Below are positions 2,772 to 36,425 of a stretch of DNA of 64,000 nt, one piece after another. A model generated the notes under the pieces. That model did no database searches, was not told the origin of the DNA, and saw only the letters and a program-made list of their open reading frames with translations. The position numbers and the translations under genes were made by a program. The DNA comes from an uncultured Candidatus Saccharibacteria bacterium. GTDB lineage: Bacteria > Patescibacteriota > WWE3 > UBA101185 > UBA10185. Position 1 is the first letter of the stretch. Every line of letters begins with the position of its first letter. Location of the stretch: assembly GCA_964510435.1 (NCBI GenBank), contig CAZEBU010000002.1:5458-69457 (forward strand). Reading direction: 5' to 3'.

Positions 2772-2780
2772 TGACTTAAA

Positions 2781-7390: not shown

Positions 7391-7405
7391 GACCCAGGAG
7401 TATCG

Positions 7406-9594: not shown

Positions 9595-9635
9595 AACTGA
9601 TAAACATCCTACCCGATTTTTTGGAAATGTTAAAA

Positions 9636-11761: not shown

Positions 11762-11801
11762 GTCTAACCAGGTTAGACCAGGGTGATCTAGGTTAGACCT
11801 T
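11762..11801. terminator. Inverted-repeat hairpin (GGTCTAACC / GGTTAGACC, with a second GGTTAGACC copy) between convergent genes. Probable bidirectional terminator.
   Basis: The sequence is ctaGGTCTAACCaGGTTAGACCagggtgatctaGGTTAGACCt. It sits in the 31-nt gap between the + membrane gene (stop 11761) and the - rSAM gene (stop 11793). Confidence 0.4.
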
Positions 11802-13495: not shown

Positions 13496-13756
13496 TTACC
13501 TTTCCGGCCACAACTGATTGCCGTTAAGATCCTCTACTACTATAGCTTTAGTGGGACAAGATTTTGCTGCCAGCACTATCTCAACGGCCTCATTCCAATT
13601 GGTTTCTTTAACAAAGGCTATTCCTTCTTCGTCCAGGTCAAAGGTCTCGGGCGCTTTAATAACACAAGTAGCCGCGCTGATACATTTTTTAGTGATAATT
13701 TTTATGCGAACCTTGGAATTTTCGAGCCCTGTATACTCGTCCTGACCTTTCAGCAT
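13496..13756 (-). CDS. Small mono-cluster [4Fe-4S]/[3Fe-4S] ferredoxin (Pyrococcus-Fd-like, Fer4_13-type)
   Basis: The fold is CISAATCVIKAPETFDLDEEGIAFV...AAKSCPTKAIVVED, i.e. C-x2-A-x2-C ... CP. The likely start is MLKGQ at 13756, 2 nt after the upstream GT2 stop. The track ORF extends to 13807. Confidence 0.65.
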   Translation of the reverse strand: MLKGQDEYTGLENSKVRIKIITKKCISAATCVIKAPETFDLDEEGIAFVKETNWNEAVEIVLAAKSCPTKAIVVEDLNGNQLWPER

Positions 13757-13757
13757 C

Positions 13758-14777
13758 TCATCCTTCTTGGTAATTTCCCGTTTCCTCATCCACTTCTCTG
13801 AGGGCAAACTTAGGCTTGATCACAAATCCAATCATAAAGTTTAAACCGTAATGCAAATGAGCCCTAAAAATACCAAAAAATATATATTTAAAGGCACCAA
13901 AATTTCTTTCTTGCATGCTGGCTCTCTGCGCTTCCGTAAAAACCATGGTGAAATATAAAAACGTAGCCGGTAAGTAAATTGACCATAATTTTGGAATTAT
14001 AAATGAACCGACGAGGCCAAACACTAACCCCAAAACAAACAGCGAGGGAATAAAGTAGGCTAATTTAAAAGAATTTTTTGGAAAGGCTCTGGCAAACCAT
14101 CCCCTATGCCTACCATATCGGGATAATTGCTGCAAAAAAGGCTTAAAAAGCTTCCTTCTGTGATGGTAAACAACAGGACCAGGATCATAAAGAAACTTTC
14201 TCTCATACTTTTTTATTAGATCCAGGCATAACTTAGTATCTTCACCCGGCCAATAGTCAGGATTGAACCCGCCTACTTCATCAAAAGCTTCCTTCTTGAC
14301 AAATAGATTAACGGAAGGGTAGTCATCAATTTCTCTTCGTTTAACCTTTTTATGTCTAAAAGCAGTAAAACCGCTGGTTAAGTATGATTCTAAAACGTGC
14401 CCTGTCACTTCTTCTAAAAAATCCACGTTGGGAGGAGTTAAAGCAGGACCACCTAAAGCGTACAGCTCGGGATTATCTCTAAAAATATTGGCGGCACTTC
14501 TCAGCCATCCAGAATCAGGGTAAGCATCGTCGTCTAGAAACACCAAAACATCACCAAGTGCCTCCCTAGCTCCCACGTTTCTTTTCTTACCCGGGCTAAC
14601 AGGCCCGGATTCCACCACCCTAAAGCGGTTTTCCCTAGAGCCAAAATTCACCTTGACGTATTTATCTAAAACTATGATAACCTCAAAATCGTAATAGCGT
14701 ACTTTTTTCAGGTGCGAAACAGTTTCCTTAATATACTCATTTATTGTTCTTACCGGTATGATGACAGAAAACTTCAT
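13758..14777 (-). CDS. GT2 glycosyltransferase with C-terminal transmembrane segments
   Basis: The GT-A N-terminus is MKFSVIIPVRT..FEVIIVLD and the DXD motif is VFLDDDAYPD. Hydrophobic helices appear after aa ~250. Confidence 0.8.
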   Translation of the reverse strand: MKFSVIIPVRTINEYIKETVSHLKKVRYYDFEVIIVLDKYVKVNFGSRENRFRVVESGPVSPGKKRNVGAREALGDVLVFLDDDAYPDSGWLRSAANIFRDNPELYALGGPALTPPNVDFLEEVTGHVLESYLTSGFTAFRHKKVKRREIDDYPSVNLFVKKEAFDEVGGFNPDYWPGEDTKLCLDLIKKYERKFLYDPGPVVYHHRRKLFKPFLQQLSRYGRHRGWFARAFPKNSFKLAYFIPSLFVLGLVFGLVGSFIIPKLWSIYLPATFLYFTMVFTEAQRASMQERNFGAFKYIFFGIFRAHLHYGLNFMIGFVIKPKFALREVDEETGNYQEG

Positions 14778-15581
14778 TTAAAGACCTGTATTAATTCTCA
14801 TGTCTAATTCCTTATTATAAACCCATTTTCTCCTATTTCCATCATCATAATACCTTAATAATTTCAATCTATAAAACACGGCCAGCGTATCTTTGAGCAT
14901 CTTCCTGATGTTTGGATCTAAAAATAAAGGCAGCCAACGTTGCCATTTGGAGCCTGGCTGAAAATTTAAGGTCAGCTGTACCGGAGCCTCGTGAATATTG
15001 GAAAAACCCAAGTGATTTGCTACAGCTAATAGTTCTATATCAAAGGCAAATGTTTTAATGAGCAGTCTTGGCATGACTTTTTCCAATACATGTCTTTTAT
15101 ACACCTTTAGACCCGCTTGCGTGTCTCTTACCCTCAATCCAAAGAGAAACTTCACCAGCAAGTAATATCCCTCGCTATATACTTTTCGCATAAAAGTATA
15201 ATTTACCTTGGAAGCTGAGTGCCTTTTACTACCGACGATGATATCGGAATCGTACCAAAGCATGTGTTCCAGTATTAAAGAGATACCATTGGGGTCAATG
15301 TCCATGCCGGCATCAATAAAGGCAATTTTCTCCCCGACAGCTCTGGCTATACCGTATTTTATTGCATAGCCCTTGCCATAGTTTTTCTTGTAAGTATAGA
15401 CTTTAAGATTATCTTTTTTTACCTTTTTTGCCTCTGTATAAGTTTTATCCGGAGAACCATCAACCACAACAATTATTTCAAAATCCCAGCGCGTATTGGA
15501 CATTACCTTATGAATATCACGTATATCTTCTTTTATAGTCTTGGCTTGCTTGTACGCAGGCACAATTATGGAAACTAGCAT
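14778..15581 (-). CDS. GT2 glycosyltransferase, Dpm1/GtrB-like polyprenyl-phosphate hexosyltransferase type (soluble, 267 aa)
   Basis: MLVSIIVPAYKQAKTI...EIIVVVDGSPDKTYTEA and the DAGMD motif are present. Its stop is adjacent to the start of the next GT2. Confidence 0.75.
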   Translation of the reverse strand: MLVSIIVPAYKQAKTIKEDIRDIHKVMSNTRWDFEIIVVVDGSPDKTYTEAKKVKKDNLKVYTYKKNYGKGYAIKYGIARAVGEKIAFIDAGMDIDPNGISLILEHMLWYDSDIIVGSKRHSASKVNYTFMRKVYSEGYYLLVKFLFGLRVRDTQAGLKVYKRHVLEKVMPRLLIKTFAFDIELLAVANHLGFSNIHEAPVQLTLNFQPGSKWQRWLPLFLDPNIRKMLKDTLAVFYRLKLLRYYDDGNRRKWVYNKELDMRINTGL

Positions 15582-15593
15582 ATAAAATTATTT

Positions 15594-16859
15594 TTAGCGA
15601 GCAGCGTCTCTAGATAATTTATACAGATAAATACCTAGGGTGACAAGGATTAAGGTGGAAACCAGGATATTGATGCGCATTATTTCAAAGATGTCCGTAT
15701 GATATCGGCTTATTAATATGTATTGCAATATTACTGCCGGAATGACAATAAGGGTGATTCTCGTTTTATCTATGGCCAAGAAGTATCTGATCATAAAGTG
15801 GATCAGCACATAAATAGAAATAAAAATAGAAAACATAGGCAAGTACGCTGCTGAGGAAATTAACCTTTCTCCAAAAAAGAGACCGGTGATAAATTTAGGC
15901 AGAAAGTTGTAGACAACTAGAGACCCAAATATTATAGCCAGGGTCATCCCTAAAAATAATTTAAATTTATCGTGATAATTTTTACCTACAGCCTTCAACG
16001 CTGATATCTGTGGATACATGACGGTAGAAATAGGACTGGCACCAAAGAGGATGATTTTACCCATAAGAACAGTACCCGCGTAGTAACCAACCAGATCAGC
16101 ATCAAAATATTTTTTCACTAAAATAATGTCAATGTTGTTAAGTGACAGCATTCCAATGTACATAAAAAGGGTGGGAACGGCAAAACGGGCAATTTTCTTG
16201 TAATACAGCTTAATGTTGGGCTTATTGCCGTTAACAAAATTGTTTTTCAGCAAAATAACACCCAAAAGATAAATAAAAAGTAGAGATAAAGAAAATCCTA
16301 AGTAAACTCCACCCACTTCGAAACCCAGCATGACAAATACAAAGGTGATGATAAGTCTTAACAGGCCGTTGCTGGCAGAAAACAAAGCTATCGCTCTAAA
16401 CCTAAGTAGACCTTGCAAGTAAGATTGTGGTGCCACAATTAGCAAATTTGCTAATATATATAAACCTAAAAATAGAAAAAGTAGAGGTTCTTCAATTTGC
16501 ATATAGTCAGAGAGGGCATTCCTACTTAAATAAAGGGTTATGAGGATTAACAAACCTAAAGCGATAAGAAAAGTACTTAATTTCCAAAAAAGTGCGGTGA
16601 TCTTTTCCCACTGGCGCCCACTGGCCAGTTCGGAAACAATTTTTACTAAAGAGATACCCATGACCACAGAAACCACACCAACTATAGAAAACACAGCAAG
16701 TAAAGCGTTGAAGGTACCGAAATCAGCCGGGGATAAGTTTCGTCCTAAGAATAACTGCAGTAAATAGCTGAAAAAACTGTTGATCAAGGATCCCAAGGCA
16801 ACTACAGCCGTACCGGACAACAAATGCTTAACTTTGATCTCCGTGATGATCCTTCTCAT
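15594..16859 (-). CDS. Wzx-like oligosaccharide flippase (MOP/polysaccharide-biosynthesis family)
   Basis: The protein is 421 aa and fully hydrophobic with about 12 TMs. The N-terminus is LLSGTAVVALGSLINSFFSYLLQLFLGRNLSPADFGTF, as in Polysacc_synt proteins. Confidence 0.65.
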   Translation of the reverse strand: MRRIITEIKVKHLLSGTAVVALGSLINSFFSYLLQLFLGRNLSPADFGTFNALLAVFSIVGVVSVVMGISLVKIVSELASGRQWEKITALFWKLSTFLIALGLLILITLYLSRNALSDYMQIEEPLLFLFLGLYILANLLIVAPQSYLQGLLRFRAIALFSASNGLLRLIITFVFVMLGFEVGGVYLGFSLSLLFIYLLGVILLKNNFVNGNKPNIKLYYKKIARFAVPTLFMYIGMLSLNNIDIILVKKYFDADLVGYYAGTVLMGKIILFGASPISTVMYPQISALKAVGKNYHDKFKLFLGMTLAIIFGSLVVYNFLPKFITGLFFGERLISSAAYLPMFSIFISIYVLIHFMIRYFLAIDKTRITLIVIPAVILQYILISRYHTDIFEIMRINILVSTLILVTLGIYLYKLSRDAAR

Positions 16860-16862
16860 AAA

Positions 16863-18494
16863 CTACTTAACCCTTTGGTAGACGTTGTATAAGTCAACAT
16901 GACGCAATTTTATAGTGTCGAGGAATTCCAGTTCGAATCTGCCCTCGTTGGCTGAATCGTCTTCATAAACAGGGTAAACAAAATAATTAGTTCTTATGGC
17001 CATGGGTGTGAGATCTTTTATAGTAGCCCTTCCGCCAATTTCTTCAATGAAAGGCCAGATCTGTGTGTAGTACTTTTCCTGAAAGCCTATGGTAAGTTTG
17101 TTCTCGATCTCCGCAGTGTAAAGAACTTCATCTACGCTCTGTCCTTCCAAAAATGCCTCGTGATCATTTTCCATTTTGATTTTTTGGAAGTAACTGATAA
17201 TTTCTTGCTGGCCAAGCATCCATTTAGGTTCTATGACATAAATGCCTTTGCTAAGTCCCCCAAAAAGAGGGGAATAATAGGAAAAGTAATTGGGGTGCAA
17301 ATACAGGGCGGTGATAAGAAAGTACACTACTACCCCAACAGTGGCCAACCAACCTAAGTACTTAATTTTCCCGTTAAGGTAATCAAATAAATACCGGAAA
17401 TAAAAACTGGCTATAAGAATGAGGGCAAGTATTGCCGGTAATATATAACGGTCAAGTTTTTTAGATGGTATAGAAAGTTCTACTAAGTAAAATACTGAAA
17501 ATAATAAAGCGTAAATTATAAACAACTTCATTTCCCTGCTTTTAATAAATTTTCGAAAAGTAATTAAAAAGGCCAGTAAACCTATGAATAAAGGTAAAGA
17601 AATTCTGTAAAGAATAACCAGAGGGTAAAACAACCACCCCGGGTCTGCCACCCAATTCCCCATGAACAGCTGGAAATGACCCCTTTCTACTCCAATAGTA
17701 AAAATACCCCTATATAAAGTTCCTAGAGCTAGCCTGGCGTGAGTCCACATAGCCGGCCATATGAGAATAAAAAGTGCAGCTACCACACCCATCCATAAGA
17801 TAAAAGTTTTGCTTGCACCTACAGTAGCCGCTCTGAAATTTTTTTCCCTAACAAAGTTTTCGATGAAGATGATCAGTGCTGAAAAAGGTATTAAAAAGAC
17901 TGCAGACGTTTTAGTAAGAAAAGCAGTGGCAGCAAATAGAGCGGAGATTATCAGATGTTTTCTCCTACGAGTCCAAAAATAGTAATAAAGCCAAACAAAG
18001 CTGGCGATCATTAGGGTAGACATCAAACCCTCCAAATGAAACATCCTAGTTAAGGCTATATAAAAAGGTTCCAACATCATGAAAAAAATAGCCAGCAGGG
18101 CGTACTTTTTTCCAAAAATTTCCTTTAGGGGGTGGAAAATAAGCGCCAGCAGAGCACCGATCATTAAAATAACAAAAAACTTTTGCACAGAATGCAGTTG
18201 AAAAATAGCGGCAATATTATTATCCGGAGGTAAAACACCCAACAAAGATTCGTAGTAAAAATTAAAGGCTTTCACGCCGGCGGCACCCAGCCACATCAGG
18301 GTAACCCCGGGGTGGTATTTTTGTATGGTTTTCTCGAATTCCAAGTTAAATACCCCGGAACCAAAATCGTAAGTGCGTGCTTTCCACTTCCATGCGTCCG
18401 TGTTGAACATATCGTGGCCCAAGCTAGGCAGCCTAGAGAGAACAAAAAACAGAAATACTAAGATAAATAATTTGTTTTCCTTGATTATTCTCAT
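16863..18494 (-). CDS. GT-C-type membrane glycosyltransferase (PMT_2 / GT39-ArnT-like), paralog A
   Basis: The N-terminus has TMs and the first extracytoplasmic loop carries ..YHPGVTLMWL... Length is 543 aa with a C-terminal soluble part. It is a paralog of 19951..21519. Confidence 0.65.
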   Translation of the reverse strand: MRIIKENKLFILVFLFFVLSRLPSLGHDMFNTDAWKWKARTYDFGSGVFNLEFEKTIQKYHPGVTLMWLGAAGVKAFNFYYESLLGVLPPDNNIAAIFQLHSVQKFFVILMIGALLALIFHPLKEIFGKKYALLAIFFMMLEPFYIALTRMFHLEGLMSTLMIASFVWLYYYFWTRRRKHLIISALFAATAFLTKTSAVFLIPFSALIIFIENFVREKNFRAATVGASKTFILWMGVVAALFILIWPAMWTHARLALGTLYRGIFTIGVERGHFQLFMGNWVADPGWLFYPLVILYRISLPLFIGLLAFLITFRKFIKSREMKLFIIYALLFSVFYLVELSIPSKKLDRYILPAILALILIASFYFRYLFDYLNGKIKYLGWLATVGVVVYFLITALYLHPNYFSYYSPLFGGLSKGIYVIEPKWMLGQQEIISYFQKIKMENDHEAFLEGQSVDEVLYTAEIENKLTIGFQEKYYTQIWPFIEEIGGRATIKDLTPMAIRTNYFVYPVYEDDSANEGRFELEFLDTIKLRHVDLYNVYQRVK

Positions 18495-18497
18495 ATT

Positions 18498-19970
18498 TTA
18501 TTGATAGATATATATCTTAGGACCTTTTCTATACTCGTTATCAATACTCAAGAGCAATTTTCTATCAGCTTTGCCCGCATCTTCCGAGACAAGAACCGAT
18601 CTTGCCACCATATCATCCGCTTTTTTGATATGTACATTTTTTATCTCCACCCTCTCCAACACAGGTTTAAAATCAGCGTCTTCATAATACACAGTACTTA
18701 ACTCTCTCTTATTATCCTGAAGCCAATAATATAGCAGCTGGCGGGTGTCTTTTCGATAAAAAGTATAAGAACCTTGTAAAGTCAGCAAAACCGGTACTAA
18801 AAAAACCACCACCCAGATAAGTTCTTTATACTTGAACTTAAATTTAAACTTCTCCAAAGCTGAGATCAACAAACCAATGCCGCTGATAATAACAAATGGG
18901 TAGGCTACAAAATAATAGTGTGCCCGGTCATTCTCAAAACCTGTAATGTAGTATATGAAAAGCATACCCAGAACATTAAGATACAAAAGATCCCTTGTGT
19001 TAAAAAAACTTTTGTCTTTAATGATTTTCAGCAAGATATAAAACACAGAAACCAGAAACATAATTGCAAATGTATAACCAAAGTTCTCAAAAAGTTTTTC
19101 CGGAAAAATTAGAATAAATTCTCTAATATGCTCTCCTAAAGGCAAACTACCCACATTCTTAAATTGCCATAAAGCACCTTTCGGGCCATCCGTTCTTAAA
19201 AAAGTCTGGTAATCAAGAACGGCAAAGGGAGTTCCCGCCACAAAACCTATTAAAGAAGTAATTCCTGCAAAAACAAGGTTCTCTAAAGACTCCAAACTAA
19301 TTATTTTTTCGCTTCTTTCCCACCACAACCTAAAAAAATGCGCGAGTAAAATAGCAAAGATGATAATGGCTCCGTTATACTTTGTAGAAGCGGCCAAGCC
19401 CGCAAACAAGCCTGCTAATAAGTAATTAGAAACATTTTTCTTAAAGAGTATCCGTGTTGAAAAATAAAGCGACCAAGTAAGAAAAAAGGTCATAGGGACA
19501 TCCGCCAGCGAATAGTGAGAATGCCATACATGAAAGGGAACAACAGCAAAAGCCAGCGCCGAGAGTAAACCTGCTCTCCTGCCAAATAGATCCCTGCCAA
19601 TCAAAAATATAGGTAAAGCCGTTAAAGCACCTAAAACAGCTGAAAAAACTCTGGTTAACAAGTAGAAGATCAGTTTGTCATTCCAGATTATAGGTGCCAA
19701 GAAATAAGTATATTCCTTATAACCTAAGAGCTGGATCAAATCTCTTAATTTTGCAAAAACCATGTATAAGAAATAATTTAGGTATATATAGAGATGCGGC
19801 CAGTCAAAATGCCCGGGATTCTTAAAAAATCTAATACCTAGTGCTGAGCGAACGATGGTTGGCTCATCAGGGTGAAAAATAAATGGGAAAGAATGTGAAA
19901 TACCAATAAGCCTAATGGCTATGCCCACAGCTATAATTATTATAAGATATTTACTTGTCTTGTTTAACAT
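18498..19970 (-). CDS. GT-C-type membrane glycosyltransferase (GT39/ArnT/PMT_2-like)
   Basis: An HPDEP acidic motif sits in the first periplasmic loop after TM1 (IFHPDEPTIVRSALG). There are about 11 TMs and a short C-terminal soluble domain. Confidence 0.65.
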   Translation of the reverse strand: MLNKTSKYLIIIIAVGIAIRLIGISHSFPFIFHPDEPTIVRSALGIRFFKNPGHFDWPHLYIYLNYFLYMVFAKLRDLIQLLGYKEYTYFLAPIIWNDKLIFYLLTRVFSAVLGALTALPIFLIGRDLFGRRAGLLSALAFAVVPFHVWHSHYSLADVPMTFFLTWSLYFSTRILFKKNVSNYLLAGLFAGLAASTKYNGAIIIFAILLAHFFRLWWERSEKIISLESLENLVFAGITSLIGFVAGTPFAVLDYQTFLRTDGPKGALWQFKNVGSLPLGEHIREFILIFPEKLFENFGYTFAIMFLVSVFYILLKIIKDKSFFNTRDLLYLNVLGMLFIYYITGFENDRAHYYFVAYPFVIISGIGLLISALEKFKFKFKYKELIWVVVFLVPVLLTLQGSYTFYRKDTRQLLYYWLQDNKRELSTVYYEDADFKPVLERVEIKNVHIKKADDMVARSVLVSEDAGKADRKLLLSIDNEYRKGPKIYIYQ

Positions 19971-21519
19971 AAAAACGCCAATATTCCAATCCGTTTATAA
20001 AAATAGACGAATCCTGGATAAATTTTACCTCACTTTTAAGAACTTTTTCGGGAATCTCTTCATTTACAGCCAGAACAAGAATTTTATAATCTCCGGTACC
20101 GGAAATTCTAATATCTGAAACCAGGGAGTTGGGATAGATTGATCTTATGGGTTTTGTGTCTATGAATCCCACCTTTACTTGAGAACCATAATTCTCCTGT
20201 AGATGTTTCTTAACTTCAAAAATGCCTATACCAAAAGATTTCTGGGCTATTATCTTGTTGGCTTGCTGACTATTTCCGAATAAGGGACTGGTATAGGTAA
20301 ATTGGTAAGGGTGTAGCTTGATCACCGGCCAGATAACGTAGACCATAAATATTATTAAGAAAAGGAGTTTAAGGTTTTTATGAGAGTGATAAACTTTTAG
20401 CAGGCGGCAATATCCAAAAACAGCCATGATACCTAAGATGGGAAAGAGTACTATCATGTACCTATCGAGTTTCTTTGCGGGAAAAGTCATGACCAGAAAA
20501 TATCCCAGATAGAAAATGGCAAGATATATAAAAAGTCTTTTGGCTTTTTCTTTTAAATTCATCTTCGAAAAACTTCTTATAAAATTCAGGAGATAGAGCA
20601 ATACCCCACCTAGTAAGAAAGGCGATGTCTTCATTAATATCACTAGCGGATAAAAGAAAATACCCGGATCCTTGGTAAGCTCTCCAAAAAATATCTGACT
20701 ATGTCCTTTTCGAACACCTATTCTGCTACCTTCACTAAATATATCCTTTAGTACTTCCCACGGTTTATCCCACAAAGCAGGGAAAAATAAAAAAGTTGCC
20801 GCCAAAAAGGGTAGTGTGATTACTAAAACATACTTCAAAACTTTCCGAAAATCCCTCCGGGTATAATATAAGAAAGATCCTCCCACAATAATAGTGAATA
20901 GGTAGGCACCTACACCAATACTTCTGGTTAAAAAGGAGGCTGCTAAAAACAAGCCGCAAATTAAACCATAAGTTTTATCATCTGTCTTAATGTAAAGATA
21001 GGAAAGCAGTAACGAAGAAAAAATAAATAGCATAAAGATAAGGTCCATATGGTACAGTCTTGAATTACCAACAATAAAGGGCTCCATGCTCATAACAAAC
21101 ACCACCAGTAATGACTTTTTGAAGCCTATTACTTTTGTCAACCAGTAGATTATTAATATACTTAGCACTAGCTGTACCAAGACCAGGGAATATTTGGCAA
21201 TAAAGTGGAAAGCGTAAAAGCTAAATTGATCATAAAGGGTAATGTTGATGATCTGCTTAAAGATCTCTATAGGAATTCCCGTGAGCCACATTAAAGATAC
21301 GCCAGGATGATAGTGCTGATAAGTTTTGCTAAATATCTGGTGCTTAAGACCAACAACAAACTGTTCTGATCTGTAGTGCCAATTTACAGCATCCGGATTA
21401 ATTGTATCGAAACCCAGCTGAGGAAGTCTTGTGATAAGAAATAGGATCACAAAAACAAGTAGCCAAATGATGGTCTTTTTATTAAGCGTCTTTACCCAAT
21501 GCATAGATAACTCCTCCAA
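19951..21519 (-). CDS. GT-C-type membrane glycosyltransferase (PMT_2-like), paralog B
   Basis: QHYHPGVSLMWL aligns with KYHPGVTLMWL of 16863..18494, and the topology is the same. Length is 522 aa. Confidence 0.65.
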   Translation of the reverse strand: MEELSMHWVKTLNKKTIIWLLVFVILFLITRLPQLGFDTINPDAVNWHYRSEQFVVGLKHQIFSKTYQHYHPGVSLMWLTGIPIEIFKQIINITLYDQFSFYAFHFIAKYSLVLVQLVLSILIIYWLTKVIGFKKSLLVVFVMSMEPFIVGNSRLYHMDLIFMLFIFSSLLLSYLYIKTDDKTYGLICGLFLAASFLTRSIGVGAYLFTIIVGGSFLYYTRRDFRKVLKYVLVITLPFLAATFLFFPALWDKPWEVLKDIFSEGSRIGVRKGHSQIFFGELTKDPGIFFYPLVILMKTSPFLLGGVLLYLLNFIRSFSKMNLKEKAKRLFIYLAIFYLGYFLVMTFPAKKLDRYMIVLFPILGIMAVFGYCRLLKVYHSHKNLKLLFLIIFMVYVIWPVIKLHPYQFTYTSPLFGNSQQANKIIAQKSFGIGIFEVKKHLQENYGSQVKVGFIDTKPIRSIYPNSLVSDIRISGTGDYKILVLAVNEEIPEKVLKSEVKFIQDSSIFINGLEYWRFYVKQDK

Positions 21520-23832: not shown

Positions 23833-23841
23833 AACTAAGTC

Positions 23842-23878
23842 ATTATATCTTGCTACGCTCGATGCGTCACTTTGTGAC
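23842..23878 (-). promoter_or_regulatory. Promoter P2. On the minus strand it reads AAAGTGACG -35, 17-nt spacer, TATAAT, 9 nt, then the ATG of wzx. The -35 lies inside the dyad GTCACtttGTGAC.
   Basis: Plus strand attata is at 23842-23847 and cgtcac at 23865-23870. The same architecture and the 16-mer GTCACTTTRTGACTAA recur at 36405-36420. Confidence 0.45.
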
Positions 23879-23894
23879 TAATCTAGTTTTGGGA

Positions 23895-26018: not shown

Positions 26019-26019
26019 C

Positions 26020-26724: not shown

Positions 26725-26726
26725 GA

Positions 26727-29415: not shown

Positions 29416-30638
29416 GCCAACACCTCCTTGATAATTTCCTCATAACTATCCAGCATTTTGGTAGTAGTAAACCTTTCCTTGGCAATTTTTAGAGAATTCT
29501 CACTAAATTCCTGGCTAACCTTTTTGTTATTAATTATATGTAACATTTTCTCTTTAAATAACTCTATATTACCTTTTTCTACCAAGTAACCGGTTTCTTC
29601 GTTTACCAATGCATCTTTTACTCCTCCCGCATCATAGGCTACTACAGGCAGTCCCGAAAACATGGCCTCAATAAGCACCATAGGTAAACCCTCAAACCTT
29701 TTTGTAGGCAGGATAAATAACCCGTATTCCTTATTCTTATAATATTTTTCGATCAATTTATTGTAGGATGCAATTTTACCCACTAAATTAACATGATCCC
29801 TTAGATTGGGGTGAAATAACACCTCTTCTCTTAATTTCTCCAGAAGGTCTCCTGAGCCCAGCAGATCTATTTGCACAGTAGAAAACTCTTTTTCCTTAAA
29901 TATAGTTAGGATGTCATTAACTCCCTTTGATGCAATTATCTGACCTACATATAAAACCTTACTTCCTCTTGGTAAATTATGCGGTTGAAAAAAAGCCTTC
30001 TCATCAACCCCATTATGAATTACCACTACTTTGTCTTCTAAAATGAAGGTTTCTTCAATAAGAGCGGTGCGCACATAATTTGAAACCGCTACCACCTTAT
30101 CTGATCCGTGCACAAAATCCCTTTGTCTTCTAAAAAAGTTTTTTAGAATAAAGCCGGTATTTTTCAAGAACAGAAAAAGGTCTTTTGGAAAGTGTGCGTT
30201 GGTAAGAAAAGTTTTATACTCGCCAATGATCGTACCGTGAGAAATAGAAATTACTCTAATTTCCAGATCCCTCTTTTTTTTAATGATGCCTAAACCTGCA
30301 GAGCTTTGTGCTAAAGCTATATGGAAAACTTCTTTTTGATGAAATTTGTTAAACTCCTGCACAGAGCGATTTATCCAATTATTTTTTTGCCAAGAGCCAA
30401 AAAAACCAAGTAGTGGACCCATGCGGTAAACACAATCTACAAAAACATACTTGACCCCATTTTCATGAGCTTCATCTAGCGTTAAGTTCCATTTTGGGGA
30501 AAAAACAATTAATTCATGCCCTCTGGAAGCTAAACCCTCACACAATACTTTGTTTTGAGTTTCCAGCCCACCGTAGTCTTTATGCAGAGTGGTTTTTTTC
30601 GCAAAGACTGCGATTTTCATAAGGAAATTATACCTCAC
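29412..30638 (-). CDS. GT4-family glycosyltransferase
   Basis: PTKRFEGLPMVLIEAMFSGLPVVAYDAGGVKDAL is present. Length is 408 aa. There is a 4-nt overlap with the neighbour. Confidence 0.85.
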   Translation of the reverse strand: MRYNFLMKIAVFAKKTTLHKDYGGLETQNKVLCEGLASRGHELIVFSPKWNLTLDEAHENGVKYVFVDCVYRMGPLLGFFGSWQKNNWINRSVQEFNKFHQKEVFHIALAQSSAGLGIIKKKRDLEIRVISISHGTIIGEYKTFLTNAHFPKDLFLFLKNTGFILKNFFRRQRDFVHGSDKVVAVSNYVRTALIEETFILEDKVVVIHNGVDEKAFFQPHNLPRGSKVLYVGQIIASKGVNDILTIFKEKEFSTVQIDLLGSGDLLEKLREEVLFHPNLRDHVNLVGKIASYNKLIEKYYKNKEYGLFILPTKRFEGLPMVLIEAMFSGLPVVAYDAGGVKDALVNEETGYLVEKGNIELFKEKMLHIINNKKVSQEFSENSLKIAKERFTTTKMLDSYEEIIKEVLA

Positions 30639-31858
30639 GGACTAAGCAAAAGTAGTGATTCCAGCTTTTTTACATTAGTTTCCTGATCAAACATTTCTTG
30701 GGCTTTCAAATATACCGCGTTTCCTAACCGCTGTTTTCTCTCTTGATCTAAAAGTAATCTTTCTATCTCAGTAGCCAGGATCTCAGAATTCCTCTGCGGC
30801 ACGATCACACCTGTAACATCATCAATGATTAGTTCGGTCACGCTACCTGCATCGGTGGTTATTATAGGGAGCTTAGCTAGAGCAGCTTCTATAATTGTGT
30901 TAGGAATACCATCTGCATCTCCATACTCACTCTTAACAATGGGTAGTACAAACAGATCTGCAATGAGATAGTATTGCGCTATCTCCGAAAAAGGAGCACC
31001 TTTACCTTGTCCCTTAATATAAAAGGTTTCCTCTAAAGCTAATTCGCTTATTTTCTGCTGTAACTTTTCGTACAAGGGTCCCGGTCCTACCAAATATACT
31101 TCGTGCTTAAAGCCCCTATCTTTTAATATCTTAGAAGCCTCGATCATATACTCGATGCCCTTCTTTTCCGTTAATCTGGTTCCTCCCATAAATATCATAG
31201 GGCCGCCGGGTTTAGTGATGTTGATCTCTTTCGGAAATATATGTGCAGAGTCAATTCCATGGTGAATGAGATGTACTTTGGATTCATCTGCTTCAGAAAT
31301 TCTCATTAATCGCCGGTAAGCATGTTGATTACACACAGAAATAAACTTAGCCTTCTTTGCTTTGGTCTTTGGTAAGTGAGGATACTCCAGCACATCTCTT
31401 GCGTGGGCAGTGATGCTAAATGGCCTATCCAAAATAATGGCTACAAACATTGCTAAAGAGGAAAAATCAGAATAAAAATGGGCATGTATTTCATCAGGTT
31501 GGTAGTTTTTCAGGATATTGGCATAACCCAAGGCTTTAACTAGTAAGTAAAATTTCCCCCAGGTGCTCTTCGTCAAATCTCCCCTGATAATTTTCTGCAA
31601 TTCCCATATTTTGTCGGATTTCGTAAAAAAGTACCTTAGAGAAAAGAGGAGGTCTATTACATTTAGTCTTGCCTTGTGAGCATGGGGTTTTAGTATCTCA
31701 GGAATTTCACCTTTACCCTTTTTTAGATAAACAATAGTTATCTCTAAATTTCCTAACTGCACCAGTTTTTCTAGATCCCTAGCAATAAATGTCTCAGTCA
31801 AAACGGGAAATTCGGGTATGAAAACCAATATTTTTTTGTTGTTATTTATTTTTATCAT
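30635..31858 (-). CDS. GT4-family glycosyltransferase
   Basis: DADGIPNTIIEAALAKLPIITTDAGSVTELI is present. Length is 407 aa. Confidence 0.85.
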   Translation of the reverse strand: MIKINNNKKILVFIPEFPVLTETFIARDLEKLVQLGNLEITIVYLKKGKGEIPEILKPHAHKARLNVIDLLFSLRYFFTKSDKIWELQKIIRGDLTKSTWGKFYLLVKALGYANILKNYQPDEIHAHFYSDFSSLAMFVAIILDRPFSITAHARDVLEYPHLPKTKAKKAKFISVCNQHAYRRLMRISEADESKVHLIHHGIDSAHIFPKEINITKPGGPMIFMGGTRLTEKKGIEYMIEASKILKDRGFKHEVYLVGPGPLYEKLQQKISELALEETFYIKGQGKGAPFSEIAQYYLIADLFVLPIVKSEYGDADGIPNTIIEAALAKLPIITTDAGSVTELIIDDVTGVIVPQRNSEILATEIERLLLDQERKQRLGNAVYLKAQEMFDQETNVKKLESLLLLSP

Positions 31859-33209
31859 CTCTTAAAATAGCGTAGATCGGCCGATCTTCCTGTTCAGTCA
31901 ACCCGTTGGTCTTTTTGCCGATAGCAAAATAGGTAATACCCAGACTTTCCACCTCATCTTTTTGCAGAAGATTCCTACCATCAAAAATAACCGGCGCTTT
32001 CATCAATCTTTTAACTTTTTTCAAGTCAAGATTAGCAAATTCCATCCATTCAGTTAAAATACACAGGGCGTCGGCACCCTTAACAGCCTCATAAGCCGAA
32101 CTGCAGTAAGTAATGTTAGGTTTTCCGAGTTCTTTCCTGGCATTTTCCATGGCTTCCGGATCATAAACTTTAAGATTTGCACCCAAACCACGCAACATTT
32201 TTACAAGTCTAATGGAAACGGAATCGCGGGTGTCATCAGTGTTATTTTTGAAGGCTAAACCTAAACAGGCTAGAGATTTATTTGAAAGGTTACTACCAAG
32301 ATGAGAAACTATCTTTTTTAGAAAATAATCCTTTTGCAAATCATTTACCTCCATAACGCCGCGTAACAGCTTAAAATCGTACGCTTGGTCTGTAGAAGTT
32401 TTATACAAAGCAACCACATCCTTAGGGAAACAACTTCCGCCGTAACCTAATCCCGCATTTAAAAAATAAGCGCCGATCCTTTTATCCAGACCCATTCCTT
32501 TTGCTACAGTTTGTACATCAGCACCAGCTCGCTCACATAGTTGGCCTATTTCGTTGATAAAAGAGATCTTGGTAGCTAAAAAGGCATTAGAAGCGTATTT
32601 TATGAGCTCTGATGACCTTAGATCACACTCCACAAGAGGAGACTTTAGATGCTTGTATAACCTCCTCATGACCTTTAAAGCTTTTTGGGAATCAAAACCA
32701 ATAACCGTTCGGTCGGTGTTTTGCATATCCTCAATAGAGGAACCTTCTCTTAAAAATTCGGGGTTGGAAACAACATCAAAACTTACCTTTTGCTTTAAAT
32801 TTTCCTTAATGATTTCCTTGACTCTTTCGTTAGTACCAACCGGCACAGTACTCTTAACAACAATGACTTTGTAGGAGGTAAGACTCTGACCAATTTCCTT
32901 GGCTACAGCCCACACCGCACTTAGATCGGCAGCGCCATCATCACCTTGCGGAGTACCCACGCAGATAAAAACTACTTCCGCATCTTTAATACCCTTAGGA
33001 AGTGAGGTAGTAAATTTCAATCTTCCGTCTTCAATGTTTTTTAAAACGAGTTCGGATAAACCAGGCTCGTAAATAGGCATTTCCCCGGAGGTGATCTTCT
33101 TGATCTTTTTCCGGTCAATGTCTATGCCCACTACTTCCTTACCCCACTCAGCAAATACAGCCGCCCCTACTAATCCTATGTAGCCAGTGCCAATTATTGC
33201 TAGTTTCAT
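31842..33209 (-). CDS. ugd: UDP-glucose 6-dehydrogenase (UDP-glucose/GDP-mannose dehydrogenase family)
   Basis: The NAD-binding N-terminus is MKLAIIGTGYIGLVGAAVFA. The catalytic Cys region is GYGGSCFPKDV, and a C-terminal UDP-binding domain is present. Confidence 0.9.
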   Translation of the reverse strand: MKLAIIGTGYIGLVGAAVFAEWGKEVVGIDIDRKKIKKITSGEMPIYEPGLSELVLKNIEDGRLKFTTSLPKGIKDAEVVFICVGTPQGDDGAADLSAVWAVAKEIGQSLTSYKVIVVKSTVPVGTNERVKEIIKENLKQKVSFDVVSNPEFLREGSSIEDMQNTDRTVIGFDSQKALKVMRRLYKHLKSPLVECDLRSSELIKYASNAFLATKISFINEIGQLCERAGADVQTVAKGMGLDKRIGAYFLNAGLGYGGSCFPKDVVALYKTSTDQAYDFKLLRGVMEVNDLQKDYFLKKIVSHLGSNLSNKSLACLGLAFKNNTDDTRDSVSIRLVKMLRGLGANLKVYDPEAMENARKELGKPNITYCSSAYEAVKGADALCILTEWMEFANLDLKKVKRLMKAPVIFDGRNLLQKDEVESLGITYFAIGKKTNGLTEQEDRPIYAILRDDKNK

Positions 33210-33224
33210 AATAACTCCTCAAGT

Positions 33225-33980
33225 TTAAACTTTGTAAAACCCCCTCAAGTCATTAATTTTAACTTTCAGGACATCAAAGGACATTCTAAACGAATCCTTT
33301 AAGGGGTTCAATCTGGTCGTTTTAACATATGTCCAAGTTACCGGTATTTCTTTTATCTTATAGCCTAGTTTCCTTGCCAAATATAGTGCTTCTACATCAA
33401 ATGCCCCCATATATCCTGTGTTCTCCTCCTTAGCGTCTTCGCCATATGTGCGCATTCTAGGAAAAATATCTTTTGCTGCTTTACTTTTGAATAATTTAAA
33501 GCCGCACTGAGAATCTTTAATCCCGGGTAAAGCCATAAACTGTACATAATAGTTAAAAATTCTTCCCATGAGATGCCGGTAATAAGGTTCATTCACCCGA
33601 TTTGCCCCTACTCCTTCCCGAGAAGCAATTACAATATCAAAATCGTGTTCTTCTATCCAATTAAATAATTTCTTCAGTTCTTCTATAGGGGTTGAAAGGT
33701 CAGCATCTGCCATGTAAATGAAATTACCTCTTGCGGCCATGATCCCCGTCCAAACAGATGGTCCTTTTCCCTTATGAGAGTTCTCTATTAGCCTTAGTTC
33801 GCGGCACTCTTTGGCGTAATTTCCCACTAGCTCAGTAGTATTATCCTCGCTTCCGTCATCTACCACGATTATTTCAAACGATTCACAAAAGTTTCTCATA
33901 AAGGAAATTACTTGCGTCAGGGAGGGAACTATTTTATCTGCTTCGTTATACGCAGGTATAACTATCGAAAACTTTGGCAT
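33225..33980 (-). CDS. GT2 glycosyltransferase, Dpm1-like polyprenyl-phosphate sugar synthase (soluble, 251 aa)
   Basis: FSIVIPAYNEADKI...EIIVVDDGSEDNT and ADADLSTP are present. Confidence 0.8.
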   Translation of the reverse strand: MPKFSIVIPAYNEADKIVPSLTQVISFMRNFCESFEIIVVDDGSEDNTTELVGNYAKECRELRLIENSHKGKGPSVWTGIMAARGNFIYMADADLSTPIEELKKLFNWIEEHDFDIVIASREGVGANRVNEPYYRHLMGRIFNYYVQFMALPGIKDSQCGFKLFKSKAAKDIFPRMRTYGEDAKEENTGYMGAFDVEALYLARKLGYKIKEIPVTWTYVKTTRLNPLKDSFRMSFDVLKVKINDLRGFYKV

Positions 33981-34009
33981 AGTTTATGCTTACATATTTT
34001 ACAAATAAT

Positions 34010-35128
34010 TTAATCCTTTTTCCAAATAACCCGGCTATAGACCGTATAATTCCAAATTAATCCTACTAAAATACCAATAAAAAACGCTGCATAAGCTACT
34101 GGTGTAGTATCGCCAAAGTTGCCAATAGAAAATTTAATGAGCCAAGTCCTAAATATTATTGGAATATATGAGGAAATAAAATAGAGCGCAAAACTTGTTA
34201 CTCTCTTTTTCGTGCCGGTTATTTTTCTCTTTCGAAAAGACCACAGATCGTTAAGGGTATAAGTGGTAAGCATGCCGGCAAATCCTGAGACGGCACTAGC
34301 AGTGGTTGAACCTAAAGGGGTCAGCCTTAAGAGAGTGAAAAGTCCGCTATCAATAAAAAGGCCGGCAAATCCTACAAAAATAAATTTTATAAAGCTTTTG
34401 CTATCCTGATACCTCAAAAGTATGATTACCCTCAGAGAATCAAGCATATTTTCCCTCTCCATTTTTGAATTTCCCCTATCTCTTAAACCAAATTTTATGG
34501 GTACCTCAACGATCTTGGCCCCAAGACGGTGCATTTTAAATAAAAGATCCATTTTGTAAGCGAATCCACTGGAATTAACTTCATCAAGGTTAATGCGGTC
34601 TACAAACCCTTTTACCCTGGAAATTTTATAACCCGTTGTGAAATCGTTGACACTAAATATACCCAAAACCACCTTAGTAAAAATATTCCCGGCTAAACTT
34701 ATAAACTTTCTATAAAACGCCCATTCCTTTGGTATACTTCCACCTTTAATATAACGTGAACCAATAACATAATCTGCACCTTTATCTAAGGCGGCCACTA
34801 ATTTTGATAGATCCTTGGGATCGTGCTGAAAATCTGCATCCATCTCTACTAAAGCTTCCGGGTGAAGATCATGCAAAGCGTATTTGAATCCATACACATA
34901 GGCGTCCCCTAATCCCACCTTTTCTTTTTTCGAAAGTAAATGTACGCTGGCATGCTTCTCTGACAACCTTCTAACTACGTTCCCTGTTCCATCCGGAGAA
35001 CTGTCATCTACTACCAATATCTCAAACTGATGTTGCGGGATCTTATTGAACTCATTCAAAAGCATACCAATCAGACGCCTGATATTATCCGCTTCATTAT
35101 ATGTAGGAATGATCACTACTATCTTCAT
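34010..35128 (-). CDS. Polyprenyl-phosphate mannosyl/glycosyl-transferase: a GT2 catalytic domain fused to a C-terminal GtrA-like 4-TM domain
   Basis: IVVIIPTYNEADNI...ILVVDDSSPDGTG and EMDADFQHDP are present. The C-terminal ~120 aa are hydrophobic (FIFVGFAGLFIDSGLFTLL...), as in Ppm1/GtrB-type enzymes. Confidence 0.8.
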   Translation of the reverse strand: MKIVVIIPTYNEADNIRRLIGMLLNEFNKIPQHQFEILVVDDSSPDGTGNVVRRLSEKHASVHLLSKKEKVGLGDAYVYGFKYALHDLHPEALVEMDADFQHDPKDLSKLVAALDKGADYVIGSRYIKGGSIPKEWAFYRKFISLAGNIFTKVVLGIFSVNDFTTGYKISRVKGFVDRINLDEVNSSGFAYKMDLLFKMHRLGAKIVEVPIKFGLRDRGNSKMERENMLDSLRVIILLRYQDSKSFIKFIFVGFAGLFIDSGLFTLLRLTPLGSTTASAVSGFAGMLTTYTLNDLWSFRKRKITGTKKRVTSFALYFISSYIPIIFRTWLIKFSIGNFGDTTPVAYAAFFIGILVGLIWNYTVYSRVIWKKD

Positions 35129-35140
35129 AGCTTGTAAATC

Positions 35141-35398
35141 TTAGATACTAAGTGCAGTTAAAACAAGGAGAAAAACAAAAAAACCTATGAGAATATATTC
35201 TAAAGCTATTTGAAAGTCAAATCTACCTTCGAGTATGTGATGGATTATTCCCCAAAGTACATAAAATACAGCTGCCAAGGCCGTAATAATTATCCTCAGC
35301 TGTTTATCATTACCCACATAAAAAAACAATGCCACAAAGGTAGTGATTCCCAGCAAAATAACAGTGTATTCAACTAGCTTATAACTTTTAAACCTCAT
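35141..35398 (-). CDS. Small 2-3-TM membrane protein (85 aa), unknown function
   Basis: The sequence is entirely hydrophobic. Its start overlaps the stop of the CAP gene as ATGA, consistent with translational coupling in the operon. Confidence 0.45.
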   Translation of the reverse strand: MRFKSYKLVEYTVILLGITTFVALFFYVGNDKQLRIIITALAAVFYVLWGIIHHILEGRFDFQIALEYILIGFFVFLLVLTALSI

Positions 35399-36375
35399 AA
35401 AATGACTCCCGGAAAGACAGAAAGCATCACGCTAACAATGACCACAAGTAGAAATACCAAATGCGCCAAGGTATGGCCGGTTACTTTTAAAATACCGTGT
35501 CTTTTTGAATACCAAATATCTATACCTAGTAAAGTGGTGATAAATCCTCCAAAGGTGATAGTGATCGATCTGGTAACATTGCGAACGTCTATGGCCGGTT
35601 TCGTTTCTACGACTTCTTTGGATACTAGCAAGGCTAATTGCTTGTCTTCAATGATTTCCTTAACGGTCTCTCCTTCTACACTGGTAACGGCCTCAGGCAC
35701 AGTCGGGGGTACAACCTCAAAGACAGCTTCTTCTCCAGTGTCCACTAGCCGATTGGCAGCGGCAACTTGCGTAGGTACTCTAGAACGACCAAACATTTGC
35801 ACTACCAATGTTGTTTCATATCCCTCCAAAACTCCATTTACAATGGCAAAGCCAATGTCATCGTAATTTGCACTAAGTAAATTTTCTCTGTGCGTGGGGG
35901 ATTCGTACCAGGCCTCTACAACTTCCTTAGAGTTATAAAAATTTTTAGCCAAATTTTCTCCTGCATAAGTGTAATCGTACCCCTCTGAGAGAATAAAATC
36001 CCATGGCTTAGTGCCCAAAGGAGAGACGTGAGCCCAATATTCATACGCGTACATATCCTGAGCTTTTCTTTCGGCAGCCTTGCTTAATGCGTGGTTTAGT
36101 TGTAACGGTTTTAGACCCAATTTTGATCTTCTTTCGTTGGTGTATCTCAAAAGATCATCCGTGCTAATGTTAGAGGCATATCCTAATATCCCCGGCGCCA
36201 AAATAGGTAATATGCGCAGCATGATAACCAAAAGAACTAAGATCAAACTGTAGGTGACAAAGGCTCCCTGAGTTAATAATTTTGCTCTTGTACGATTTGT
36301 TTCGTGGGGAACGAAATGATAAATAAAACGATATTTCTGTATTGAATCCGAGTCTTTTGGCAGACGTGCTTTCAT
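35395..36375 (-). CDS. Membrane-anchored CAP/SCP/PR-1-like domain protein (YkwD-like)
   Basis: The CAP domain region is YAYEYWAHVSPLGTKPW...YAGENLAKNF..AWYESPTHRENLLSANYDDIGFAIVNG. It has an N-terminal signal-anchor helix. Confidence 0.75.
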   Translation of the reverse strand: MKARLPKDSDSIQKYRFIYHFVPHETNRTRAKLLTQGAFVTYSLILVLLVIMLRILPILAPGILGYASNISTDDLLRYTNERRSKLGLKPLQLNHALSKAAERKAQDMYAYEYWAHVSPLGTKPWDFILSEGYDYTYAGENLAKNFYNSKEVVEAWYESPTHRENLLSANYDDIGFAIVNGVLEGYETTLVVQMFGRSRVPTQVAAANRLVDTGEEAVFEVVPPTVPEAVTSVEGETVKEIIEDKQLALLVSKEVVETKPAIDVRNVTRSITITFGGFITTLLGIDIWYSKRHGILKVTGHTLAHLVFLLVVIVSVMLSVFPGVIL

Positions 36376-36384
36376 AACAAGAAA

Positions 36385-36425
36385 ATTATATCTCGTTTCA
36401 TTTGGTATGTCACTTTATGACTAAA
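36385..36425 (-). promoter_or_regulatory. Promoter P1. On the minus strand it reads AAAGTGACA -35, 17-nt spacer, TATAAT, 9 nt, then the ATG of the CAP gene. It heads a ~24 kb glycosylation super-operon.
   Basis: Plus strand attata is at 36385-36390 and tgtcac at 36408-36413. The shared 16-mer GTCACTTTATGACTAA matches P2. Confidence 0.45.

Follow-up and report, generated by a model that had tools for sequence, protein, structure and literature searches.

A gene block syntenic across WWE3 bacteria as a candidate assembly line for an envelope glycoconjugate

Bacteria of the candidate phyla radiation (CPR, or Patescibacteria) are tiny episymbionts whose surfaces mediate host attachment, yet to our knowledge the glycans of their envelopes have hardly been explored. 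What would such a cell, whose genome measures about 1 Mb, build with a long uninterrupted run of glycosyltransferase and flippase-like genes? The question is raised by a 64-kb stretch of DNA from an uncultured bacterium deposited as Candidatus Saccharibacteria (64,000 nucleotides (nt) of contig CAZEBU010000002.1, assembly GCA_964510435.1; hereafter the window). Related genomes identify the lineage as WWE3, which bears out the CPR-type host proposed in an initial annotation of the sequence. The block pairs GT2 enzymes resembling polyprenyl-phosphate-sugar synthases with GT-C-type membrane transferases. We consider it moderately probable that it constitutes a WWE3-wide assembly line for a core envelope glycoconjugate, made mainly by extracytoplasmic glycosylation. 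The general mechanism, in which a conserved envelope glycoconjugate is assembled outside the membrane from polyprenyl-phosphate sugars, appears very likely. The observations of the initial annotation are borne out with minor corrections, and its reading, several extracytoplasmic glycosyl transfers rather than a Wzy-type repeat-unit polysaccharide, is supported.

The block runs on the minus strand from position 36375 to 11793 and comprises 21 consecutive genes in 24.6 kb, or 20 genes when counted only from the CAP gene to the ferredoxin gene (genes are designated below by their lower coordinate; Table 1). The 20 internal junctions span −50 to +62 nt, and gaps of more than 41 nt occur just twice, ahead of the CAP gene (53 nt) and ahead of 22363 (62 nt). 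Four-nucleotide overlaps occur at four junctions (two ATGA and two GTGA), while several of the longer overlaps are artefacts of mechanically taking the first TTG or GTG as the start codon. The initial annotation had described about 22 head-to-tail minus-strand genes with gaps of 0–40 nt and many ATGA junctions; strand and tight packing stand, but the frequency of ATGA overlaps does not. Pfam and NCBIfam hidden Markov models (HMMs) identified three GT4, five GT2 (34010, 33225, 26020, 14778 and 13758), ugd, two MOP-superfamily proteins, one LPG_synthase_TM/UPF0104 protein and, among the polytopic proteins, three PMT_2 proteins above the gathering score, one below it (26727) and one DUF2079 protein. 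The three GT4, two Wzx-like proteins, UPF0104 flippase-like protein and ugd had all been called correctly from the sequence, whereas the GT2 enzymes had been overcounted as about six. One of them, 13758, had been taken for a radical S-adenosylmethionine (radical SAM) enzyme, which is instead encoded by 11793, outside the block as first delimited.

All sizeable open reading frames (ORFs) between 11793 and 58399 are encoded by the minus strand, and the window is AT-rich (35–42% GC) with negative GC skew throughout. The upstream array (36429–58399) is rpoB-rpoC-rpsG-fusA-tuf-S10/spc-secY-ybaB-adk, and the glycosylation block starts directly behind adk. No tRNA genes or Rfam elements were found in the window.

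The main new result is the conservation of this locus across WWE3. Relatives of its DUF2079 protein were collected from 32 species-representative genomes, all WWE3 or ‘Patescibacteria’ and some auto-labelled Saccharibacteria, and synteny was assessed by tblastn of every window protein against the related loci. The block order was syntenic in approximately 25 species-level WWE3/Patescibacteria genomes of about 0.86–1.1 Mb, at 40–75% amino-acid identity. In the tblastn comparison nearly all loci of sufficient length had this order, at identities of 36–77% and with equally tight spacing. It reads CAP, a small transmembrane (TM) protein, DPMS, GT2, ugd, three GT4, GT-C, GT2, DUF2079 and MOP, and continues with the MprF-like gene, three GT-C, MOP, GT2, GT2 and ferredoxin. 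Where the flank suffices (related loci L004 and L017), ybaB-adk precede the CAP gene. The ferredoxin gene is syntenic in L004 and L026 and is followed there by the radical SAM gene (71 and 55% identity, respectively); in L018 the latter lies downstream (65%) and no ferredoxin ortholog was detected. A gene order that recurs in some 25 genomes indicates that the arrangement is more than chance, and its retention across a candidate phylum, behind the gene array that is most conserved in bacteria, argues for a core rather than an accessory function. We found no published description of the locus. The literature on WWE3 and glycosyltransferases yielded general remarks only, including the report by Kantor et al. 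(2013) that glycosyltransferases are abundant in WWE3, with polysaccharides, glycoproteins or a glycosylated S-layer suggested as products (PMC3812714). No paper on ‘DUF2079’ was retrieved from the literature.

Four of the five GT2 enzymes are predicted to be donor synthases. The best solved relative of all four is the Pyrococcus furiosus DPMS (5MLZ), followed by matches that include ArnC and GtrB, and the initial claim of at least four Dpm1/GtrB-like enzymes, one with a GtrA-like tail, was thus upheld. The tailed enzyme (34010) aligns with 5MLZ over its full length, membrane domain included (residues 1–333 on 23–343, E 7.4e-46). It has the P. furiosus-type architecture of a GT-A domain with a DxD motif, interface helices and a four-helix GtrA/DPMS TM domain, with GtrA_DPMS_TM spanning residues 248–369. 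The three short enzymes 33225, 26020 and 14778 contain no TM segments, as is also the case for human DPM1 and mycobacterial Ppm1-D2 and PpgS. Orthologs share the motifs EMDaDFQHdP (34010), aDaDls.P (33225) and QDADLEY.P (26020), so that the canonical DxD is present in three of the four. When ranked against the PDB, 33225 matched DPMS and then ArnC, with chondroitin synthase above GtrB. For 26020 the top matches were DPMS, ArnC and GtrB, its best NCBIfam match was AglJ (E 7e-34, below cutoff), and an ortholog was found in 29 of the 32 related loci. The four proteins are 26–31% identical to each other (28–31% for 33225 against the rest) and show no BLAST relation to the GT2 enzymes 13758 and 850. 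These comparisons place the four in the DPMS/GtrB/ArnC class of GT2 enzymes, the assignment of 14778 being the weaker one.

The polytopic proteins that the initial annotation had called GT-C did not turn out to be transporters, as judged by PMT_2 and PMT matches and profile–profile comparisons. The gathering scores of PMT, PMT_2 and STT3 were all exceeded by 18498; 16863 and 19951 passed PMT_2 marginally, and 26727 missed it. A profile of 18498 orthologs matched yeast Pmt1 (E 2e-13) and archaeal AglB (E 0.006). By hhalign, 16863 and 19951 are paralogs (E 4.5e-69), and 16863 is linked to the 18498 family (95%, E 2e-8). The ortholog profile of 26727 was linked to the same family (95%, E 3e-8, 377 columns), with its EWGD motif aligned on HPDE. 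Like PMT/ArnT enzymes (GT39/GT83), 18498 combines the PMT and PMT_2 matches with a loop-1 Asp-Glu, but at 490 residues it is much shorter, and Pfam found in it no MIR domain, a feature of the eukaryotic protein O-mannosyltransferases. Family profiles of 26727 and DUF2079 gave no meaningful matches in the PDB, and an hhalign comparison of DUF2079 with the PMT-like family fell short of significance. Because sequence methods provided no link to GT-C families, the DUF2079 protein was modelled structurally. The model, built with 45 homologs, reached a predicted local distance difference test score (pLDDT) of 87 and a predicted template modelling score (pTM) of 0.84. Its N-terminal polytopic module adopts the GT-C helix arrangement, and the predicted structure suggests a GT-C-fold transferase.

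All five proteins share a common architecture: a K/R-rich N terminus, TM1, a long loop with an acidic start, additional TM segments and a soluble C-terminal domain. Conservation behind TM1 was assessed in 19–26 orthologs per family. Invariant residues were T31-D32 in 16863, H32 and D34 in 18498 (with P33 and E35 in at least 90%), P41-D42 in 19951, E33-W-G-D36 in 26727 and D39/D44 in DUF2079. Applying the positive-inside rule to the K/R-rich N termini predicts that acidic loop 1 of each protein would face outward. The acidic first loop also faces outward in characterised GT-C enzymes.

Known three-component systems for extracytoplasmic glycosylation consist of a DPMS-class GT2, a flippase and a GT-C enzyme, and a MOP-superfamily (MATE) flippase for polyprenyl-phosphate sugars has been documented (PMC11127046). 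As in GtrA/GtrB/GtrC of Shigella and Salmonella phages, CsbB/GtcA/YfhO and GacI/GacL of Gram-positive bacteria, and the GT136 pentofuranose systems (Kelly et al. 2024, PMC11127046), the block encodes GT2 synthase, candidate flippase and GT-C side by side. Its synthases are of the GtrB/DPMS/ArnC class, and GT-C genes lie next to synthase genes: the trio 26727, 26020 and 23895 (GT-C, GT2, GT-C) is separated by gaps of 1–2 nt. The proposed donor is likewise a polyprenyl-monophosphate sugar used outside the membrane. Candidate flippases for such sugars are the GtrA_DPMS_TM domain, the two Wzx-type MOP proteins 22363 and 15594 and one TIGR00374 domain, with substrates that are not assignable from sequence. 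Each known system, however, is one triad, often strain-variable, whose role is to decorate a polymer made elsewhere. In contrast, the WWE3 block is a single lineage-conserved locus in which four synthases, five GT-Cs and about four candidate flippases are strung together with core enzymes of the GT4 and GT2 types, and a separate backbone pathway is not visible. We regard the system as a concatenated, lineage-conserved variant of known GT-C/polyprenyl-phosphate glycosylation and not as categorically new.

Under the proposed assembly-line mechanism, Ugd would supply UDP-glucuronic acid, and the three GT4 together with the membrane-tethered GT2 would assemble, on the cytoplasmic side of the membrane, a primer or core linked to lipid; these four cytoplasmic glycosyltransferases and ugd can build an acceptor core. 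The four paralogous DPMS/GtrB/ArnC-class GT2s would each load one monosaccharide on polyprenyl phosphate. Four candidate translocators of the lipid-linked sugars (the two MOP proteins, the MprF-type domain and the GtrA/DPMS membrane domain) may then serve the five GT-C enzymes, which would transfer sugars outside the membrane. Finally, we infer, weakly, that the ferredoxin and the B12-binding radical SAM enzyme probably modify a sugar or lipid, because the latter resembles the sugar-acting HpnJ (NCBIfam E 1e-46, below cutoff) and AprD4 (best PDB match, E 5e-9). Membership in the HpnJ/hopanoid family itself was rejected, with 159.8 bits against the TIGR03471 cutoff of 577.6 and no hopanoid gene context, and we class the protein simply as a B12-binding radical SAM enzyme from the broad clade around HpnJ.

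As acceptor we rank first a membrane- or wall-anchored glycopolymer, lipoglycan-like in the manner of mycobacterial lipomannan and lipoarabinomannan (LM/LAM), although we stop short of calling it probable; a protein, ranked second, is possible, and other acceptors take up the remainder. In mycobacteria and corynebacteria, LM, LAM and arabinogalactan (AG) are made with the GT4 enzymes PimA/B, the GT2 enzymes Ppm1 and PpgS, and the GT-C enzymes MptA/B/C, PimE, Aft and Emb. As is well established, GT4 enzymes prime on a lipid without a phosphoglycosyltransferase (PGT) in these pathways, Ppm1/PpgS provide donors and many GT-Cs take part; together with the haloarchaeal Agl pathway, they come nearest in function to the proposed WWE3 line. 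The mycobacterial genes are scattered, whereas those of WWE3 form one operon-like block; the mycobacterial GT-Cs belong to GT87, GT53 and GT85, whereas those of WWE3 are PMT_2-like and DUF2079. The likeness does not imply phosphatidylinositol (PI) or decaprenylphosphoryl arabinose (DPA) chemistry in the WWE3 host.

If the acceptor were a protein, the block could instead serve archaeal-Agl-like glycosylation of S-layer, pilin or secreted proteins, which we judge rather unlikely. In Haloferax volcanii, AglJ starts on dolichyl phosphate (Dol-P), and AglD, AglR and AglS add the final mannose (PMC3871713). By this route an AglJ/DPMS-like GT2 would start on polyprenyl monophosphate, dispensing with a PGT, and GT4 and GT2 enzymes would extend the glycan with hexuronic acids via Ugd. 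A MOP protein would export it, 18498 would transfer it to protein, and the other GT-Cs would add final sugars as AglD/AglR/AglS do. The Hfx. volcanii cluster indeed shares with the block an AglJ-like enzyme, glycosyltransferases, AglM, the DPMS AglD, the Wzx-like AglR, the outside mannosyltransferase AglS and the lack of a PGT (PMC3871713). Consistent with such a route, 26020 is most similar to AglJ, 13758 matches AglG, ugd matches AglM (401 bits), and 18498 passes the PMT, PMT_2 and STT3 scores with matches to Pmt1 and AglB. The block also lies directly behind secY, and a glycosylated S-layer has been suggested for WWE3 by Kantor et al. (PMC3812714). However, all Agl matches fall far under the equivalog cutoffs; for ugd, TuaD (552 bits) outscores AglM, and NDP-sugar dehydrogenase is above cutoff. 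The STT3 similarity of 18498 is weak, with no clear AglB/STT3 in the block, and no acceptor protein is identifiable there. Nor was a WWDYG-type oligosaccharyltransferase motif noticed, though no search was aimed at one. Moreover, the five distinct GT-Cs of this bacterial system exceed the needs of known protein-glycosylation systems.

A bolder version of the same idea, to which we give little credence, makes the block the bacterial counterpart of the haloarchaeal Agl route. A hexuronic-acid oligosaccharide would be built on polyprenyl monophosphate, the DPMS/AglJ-like GT2 replacing the PGT; GT4 and GT2 enzymes would lengthen it, MOP would flip it, the PMT/STT3-like GT-C would deliver it en bloc, and further GT-Cs would finish it from polyprenyl-phosphate sugars. 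If so, the product would be the main surface coat of all WWE3 (S-layer or pilus glycan, or wall polymer), with an unusual sugar modification added by the radical SAM enzyme.

The pair of Wzx-type MOP proteins, the three GT4, ugd and the one GT2 of classical type would also suit a conventional Wzx-dependent capsule or exopolysaccharide repeat-unit locus. Its PGT, polymerase and chain-length regulator would then lie elsewhere or among the unassigned polytopic proteins, and the GT-C/GT2 pairs would merely decorate side chains. Further glycan genes downstream and two unassigned 11-TM proteins (4043–7390 and 9473–11761) leave room for this view. However, HMM searches for Bac_transf (PF02397), Wzy_C/EpsG, Wzz, LCP and a ligase gave no match anywhere in the window, the block included, in agreement with the initial annotation, which had recognised no Wzy, Wzz or initiating PGT in the block. 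In addition, the cytoplasmic glycosyltransferases are outnumbered by GT-C genes, and the order is kept across species, unlike that of hypervariable O-antigen or capsule loci. A capsule or exopolysaccharide locus is therefore very unlikely.

The sole Glycos_transf_4 (PF00953) protein in the window is encoded at 63048–63986 (minus strand). Its MraY score (E 5e-52, versus E 6e-14 for WecA) and the sequence PLHHHFE, which carries the MraY HHH signature, rule it out as a WecA-type initiator, and the view that the flanking mraY is a different enzyme stands. The gene lies beside those for a beta-propeller protein and an RsmB-like methyltransferase, with no visible dcw/mur cluster. According to Kantor et al. 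(2013), a complete peptidoglycan pathway could not be identified in a WWE3 genome (PMC3812714).

The block had further been proposed to form a single transcript from the promoter-like module P1. P1 (36413–36385; GTGACA-17-TATAAT) agrees with the sigma70 consensus at 11 of 12 positions and is the top-scoring site in the 31–39 kb region. Nevertheless the single transcript is called into question by a twin module, P2, and by relatives in which the block is split. P1 and P2 share the composite TTAGTCAYAAAGTGAC-N16-GATATAAT-N9-ATG, with two exact matches against 0.01 expected, and their common 16-mer occurs exactly at these two sites only. Within it the palindrome GTCAC-AAA-GTGAC covers the −35 hexamer at both sites and could plausibly serve as an operator. 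Only 9 nt separate the −10 box from the ATG, suggesting near-leaderless mRNAs. As the 16-mer had no occurrence in the 32 related loci, the motif appears confined to this genome or to close relatives of it. The adk–CAP gap measures 9 nt in L004 and 22 nt in L017, where P1 is not conserved, and at the P2 junction some related loci retain TATAAT and others have a 4-nt overlap. Promoter-like sites in general were not commoner than in shuffled sequence, and no intergenic terminator-like sites were found inside the block.

P1 and P2 split the block of this genome into two units of about 12 kb, and housekeeping insertions in relatives likewise mark two separable modules. In L014 (13613–17318), ITPase, ProRS and an opposite-strand Elp3-like radical SAM-GNAT gene are inserted between the first MOP and the MprF-like gene; judged by spacing, L020 and L028 share this insertion point. 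L024 (10484–13590) carries an M16 peptidase and an ABC ATPase after DUF2079. Because of the P2 twin and these insertions, the block is not obligatorily one transcript and behaves as two modules. Both observations, with P2 standing in front of the Wzx gene 22363, could be taken further, to two or more independent glycosylation modules that are chance neighbours behind the ribosomal-protein operon: one from CAP to DUF2079 and Wzx, the other from the MprF-like protein to the radical SAM enzyme. We consider this unlikely. In most genomes the two parts adjoin each other and their order is unchanged, the identity of P1 and P2 suggests their co-regulation, and the split points disagree, P2 lying before the Wzx gene and the inserts after it.

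Several points weigh against the proposed assembly line. Support for the function of its components comes from sequence comparison and a structural model. Four relatives lack ugd and four the MprF-like gene; 14778 is without the canonical DxD; and for 33225 the chondroitin synthase score nearly equals that of DPMS. The NCBIfam scores of the GT2 and GT4 enzymes are all far under the equivalog cutoffs, so that sugar specificity is not readable from them. The CAP and 85-residue proteins have no evident glycosylation role. MOP flippases usually move undecaprenyl-diphosphate (Und-PP)-oligosaccharides, which would need a PGT, possibly located elsewhere in the genome, outside the 64 kb in view. The two Wzx-like proteins need not imply Und-PP-oligosaccharides, because a MATE flippase has been documented for a polyprenyl-phosphate sugar (PMC11127046).

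Table 1. Genes and promoter-like modules of the WWE3 block, listed in the direction of transcription (window coordinates).
Feature	Coordinates	Strand	Evidence and remarks
P1 promoter-like module	36373..36424	-	TTAGTCATAAAGTGAC-N16-GATATAAT-N9-ATG, in 53-nt adk-CAP gap
CAP/YkwD-family protein, TM at both ends, first gene	35395..36375	-	Pfam CAP E 3.6e-19; NCBIfam YkwD E 1.9e-30
85-residue protein, 3 TM segments	35141..35398	-	ORF, ATGA overlap with CAP
Predicted DPMS-type polyprenyl-phosphate hexose synthase	34010..35128	-	Pfam Glycos_transf_2 + GtrA_DPMS_TM
Soluble DPMS/ArnC/GtrB-class GT2, candidate polyprenyl-phosphate-sugar synthase	33225..33980	-	Pfam, NCBIfam, PDB matches
UDP-glucose 6-dehydrogenase (ugd)	31842..33209	-	Three UDPG_MGDP_dh Pfam domains
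GT4, cytoplasmic, GT-B	30635..31858	-	Pfam Glycos_transf_1 + Glyco_trans_1_4; no TM
GT4 glycosyltransferase	29412..30638	-	Pfam/NCBIfam
GT4 glycosyltransferase	28219..29415	-	Pfam/NCBIfam
Divergent GT-C transferase, ~8 TM + C-terminal soluble domain	26727..28262	-	PMT_2 19.3 bits, sub-cutoff
Soluble DPMS/AglJ-class GT2	26020..26724	-	Pfam; between two GT-C genes
DUF2079 protein, predicted GT-C-fold transferase with C-terminal beta-sandwich domain	23895..26018	-	
P2 promoter-like module, twin of P1	23830..23881	-	TTAGTCACAAAGTGAC-N16-GATATAAT-N9-ATG, in 62-nt gap before 22363-23832
MOP-superfamily (Wzx-like) flippase candidate	22363..23832	-	Pfam Polysacc_synt_3 + Polysacc_synt
MprF-type flippase-like membrane domain (LPG_synthase_TM/UPF0104)	21482..22366	-	Pfam E 1.1e-43; TIGR00374 above cutoff
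GT-C transferase, paralog of 16863-18494	19951..21519	-	PMT_2 27.4 bits
PMT/ArnT-like GT-C transferase	18498..19970	-	Pfam PMT_2 64 bits, PMT 51 bits, STT3 29 bits
GT-C transferase	16863..18494	-	PMT_2 31.3 bits
Second MOP-superfamily (Wzx-like) flippase candidate	15594..16859	-	Pfam Polysacc_synt + Polysacc_synt_3; ~10 TM
Divergent DPMS-class GT2	14778..15581	-	Conserved FID-x-GMDI replaces DxD
GT2 with C-terminal membrane segment (MftF/EpsD/AglG-like)	13758..14777	-	Pfam Glycos_transf_2 + Glyco_trans_2_3
Small single-cluster 4Fe-4S ferredoxin	13496..13807	-	Pfam Fer4_13 E 1.4e-9
B12-binding radical SAM enzyme (HpnJ-like), 3' end of block	11793..13454	-	Pfam B12-binding + Radical_SAM

Among the remaining genes of the block, the CAP protein is syntenic in 18 loci. 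The 85-residue protein, whose gene occupies an apparent gap after CAP, matched no Pfam family and has orthologs in 11 loci. The best NCBIfam match of the GT4 30635 is EpsE-like, below cutoff, and sub-threshold matches of 28219 include TuaC, MshA and the diacylglycerol (DAG) glucosyltransferases Dgs and Mgs. A crude hydropathy count gave about nine hydrophobic segments for 22363. The TM segment of 13758 spans residues 243–261, and its NCBIfam matches, AglG included, are below cutoff.

At its 3′ end the conserved core appears to abut a variable glycan region (177–11761); the related loci stop at or before the radical SAM gene, ahead of 177–9594. That minus-strand part encodes a SAM methyltransferase, a GT2, two GT4 and a short-chain dehydrogenase/reductase (SDR) of the NDP-sugar epimerase/dehydratase family, whose best NCBIfam match is dTDP-glucose 4,6-dehydratase. 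The minus-strand gene 4043–7390 specifies a protein of 1115 residues with about ten N-terminal TM segments, a large outside domain, a C-terminal TM anchor and an invariant GGDW after TM1. The plus-strand gene 9473–11761, which converges on the radical SAM gene, has no other sizeable gene on its strand between 2772 and 59096; its 762-residue product crosses the membrane with about 11 TM segments and ends in a soluble domain of about 290 residues. Neither protein gave a Pfam or NCBIfam match even at E 10 or a match in the PDB, and single-sequence hhalign against GT-C profiles was uninformative. The 1115-residue protein, for which AlphaFold gave no usable model (pLDDT 42.6), is possibly an orphan enzyme of GT-C-like type. 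Only two homologs were found among 5.8 billion proteins, and its near-absence from databases points to a strain-variable downstream region. An FkbM-family methyltransferase gene (1884–2771, plus strand) contains an in-frame TAA at 2259–2261 (…SFEPN*KNFLILKRN…) and is probably a pseudogene or a sequencing error.

A further GT-C candidate lies at 59097–60719 on the plus strand, adjoining signal peptidase I upstream of rpoB. Its PMT_2 score is just sub-cutoff (25.5 bits), and it is fused to C-terminal TPR repeats. Counting this protein and the two unclassified polytopic proteins, the window encodes up to eight GT-C-like membrane proteins.

The locus occupies approximately 2.2–2.9% of a WWE3 genome of about 0.86–1.1 Mb. 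It provides a parts list for the WWE3 coat: four predicted donor synthases, two putative promoters and five GT-Cs whose candidate catalytic residues can be pointed out. It also raises the possibility that PGT-independent, GT-C-driven glycan assembly extends beyond Actinobacteria and Archaea.

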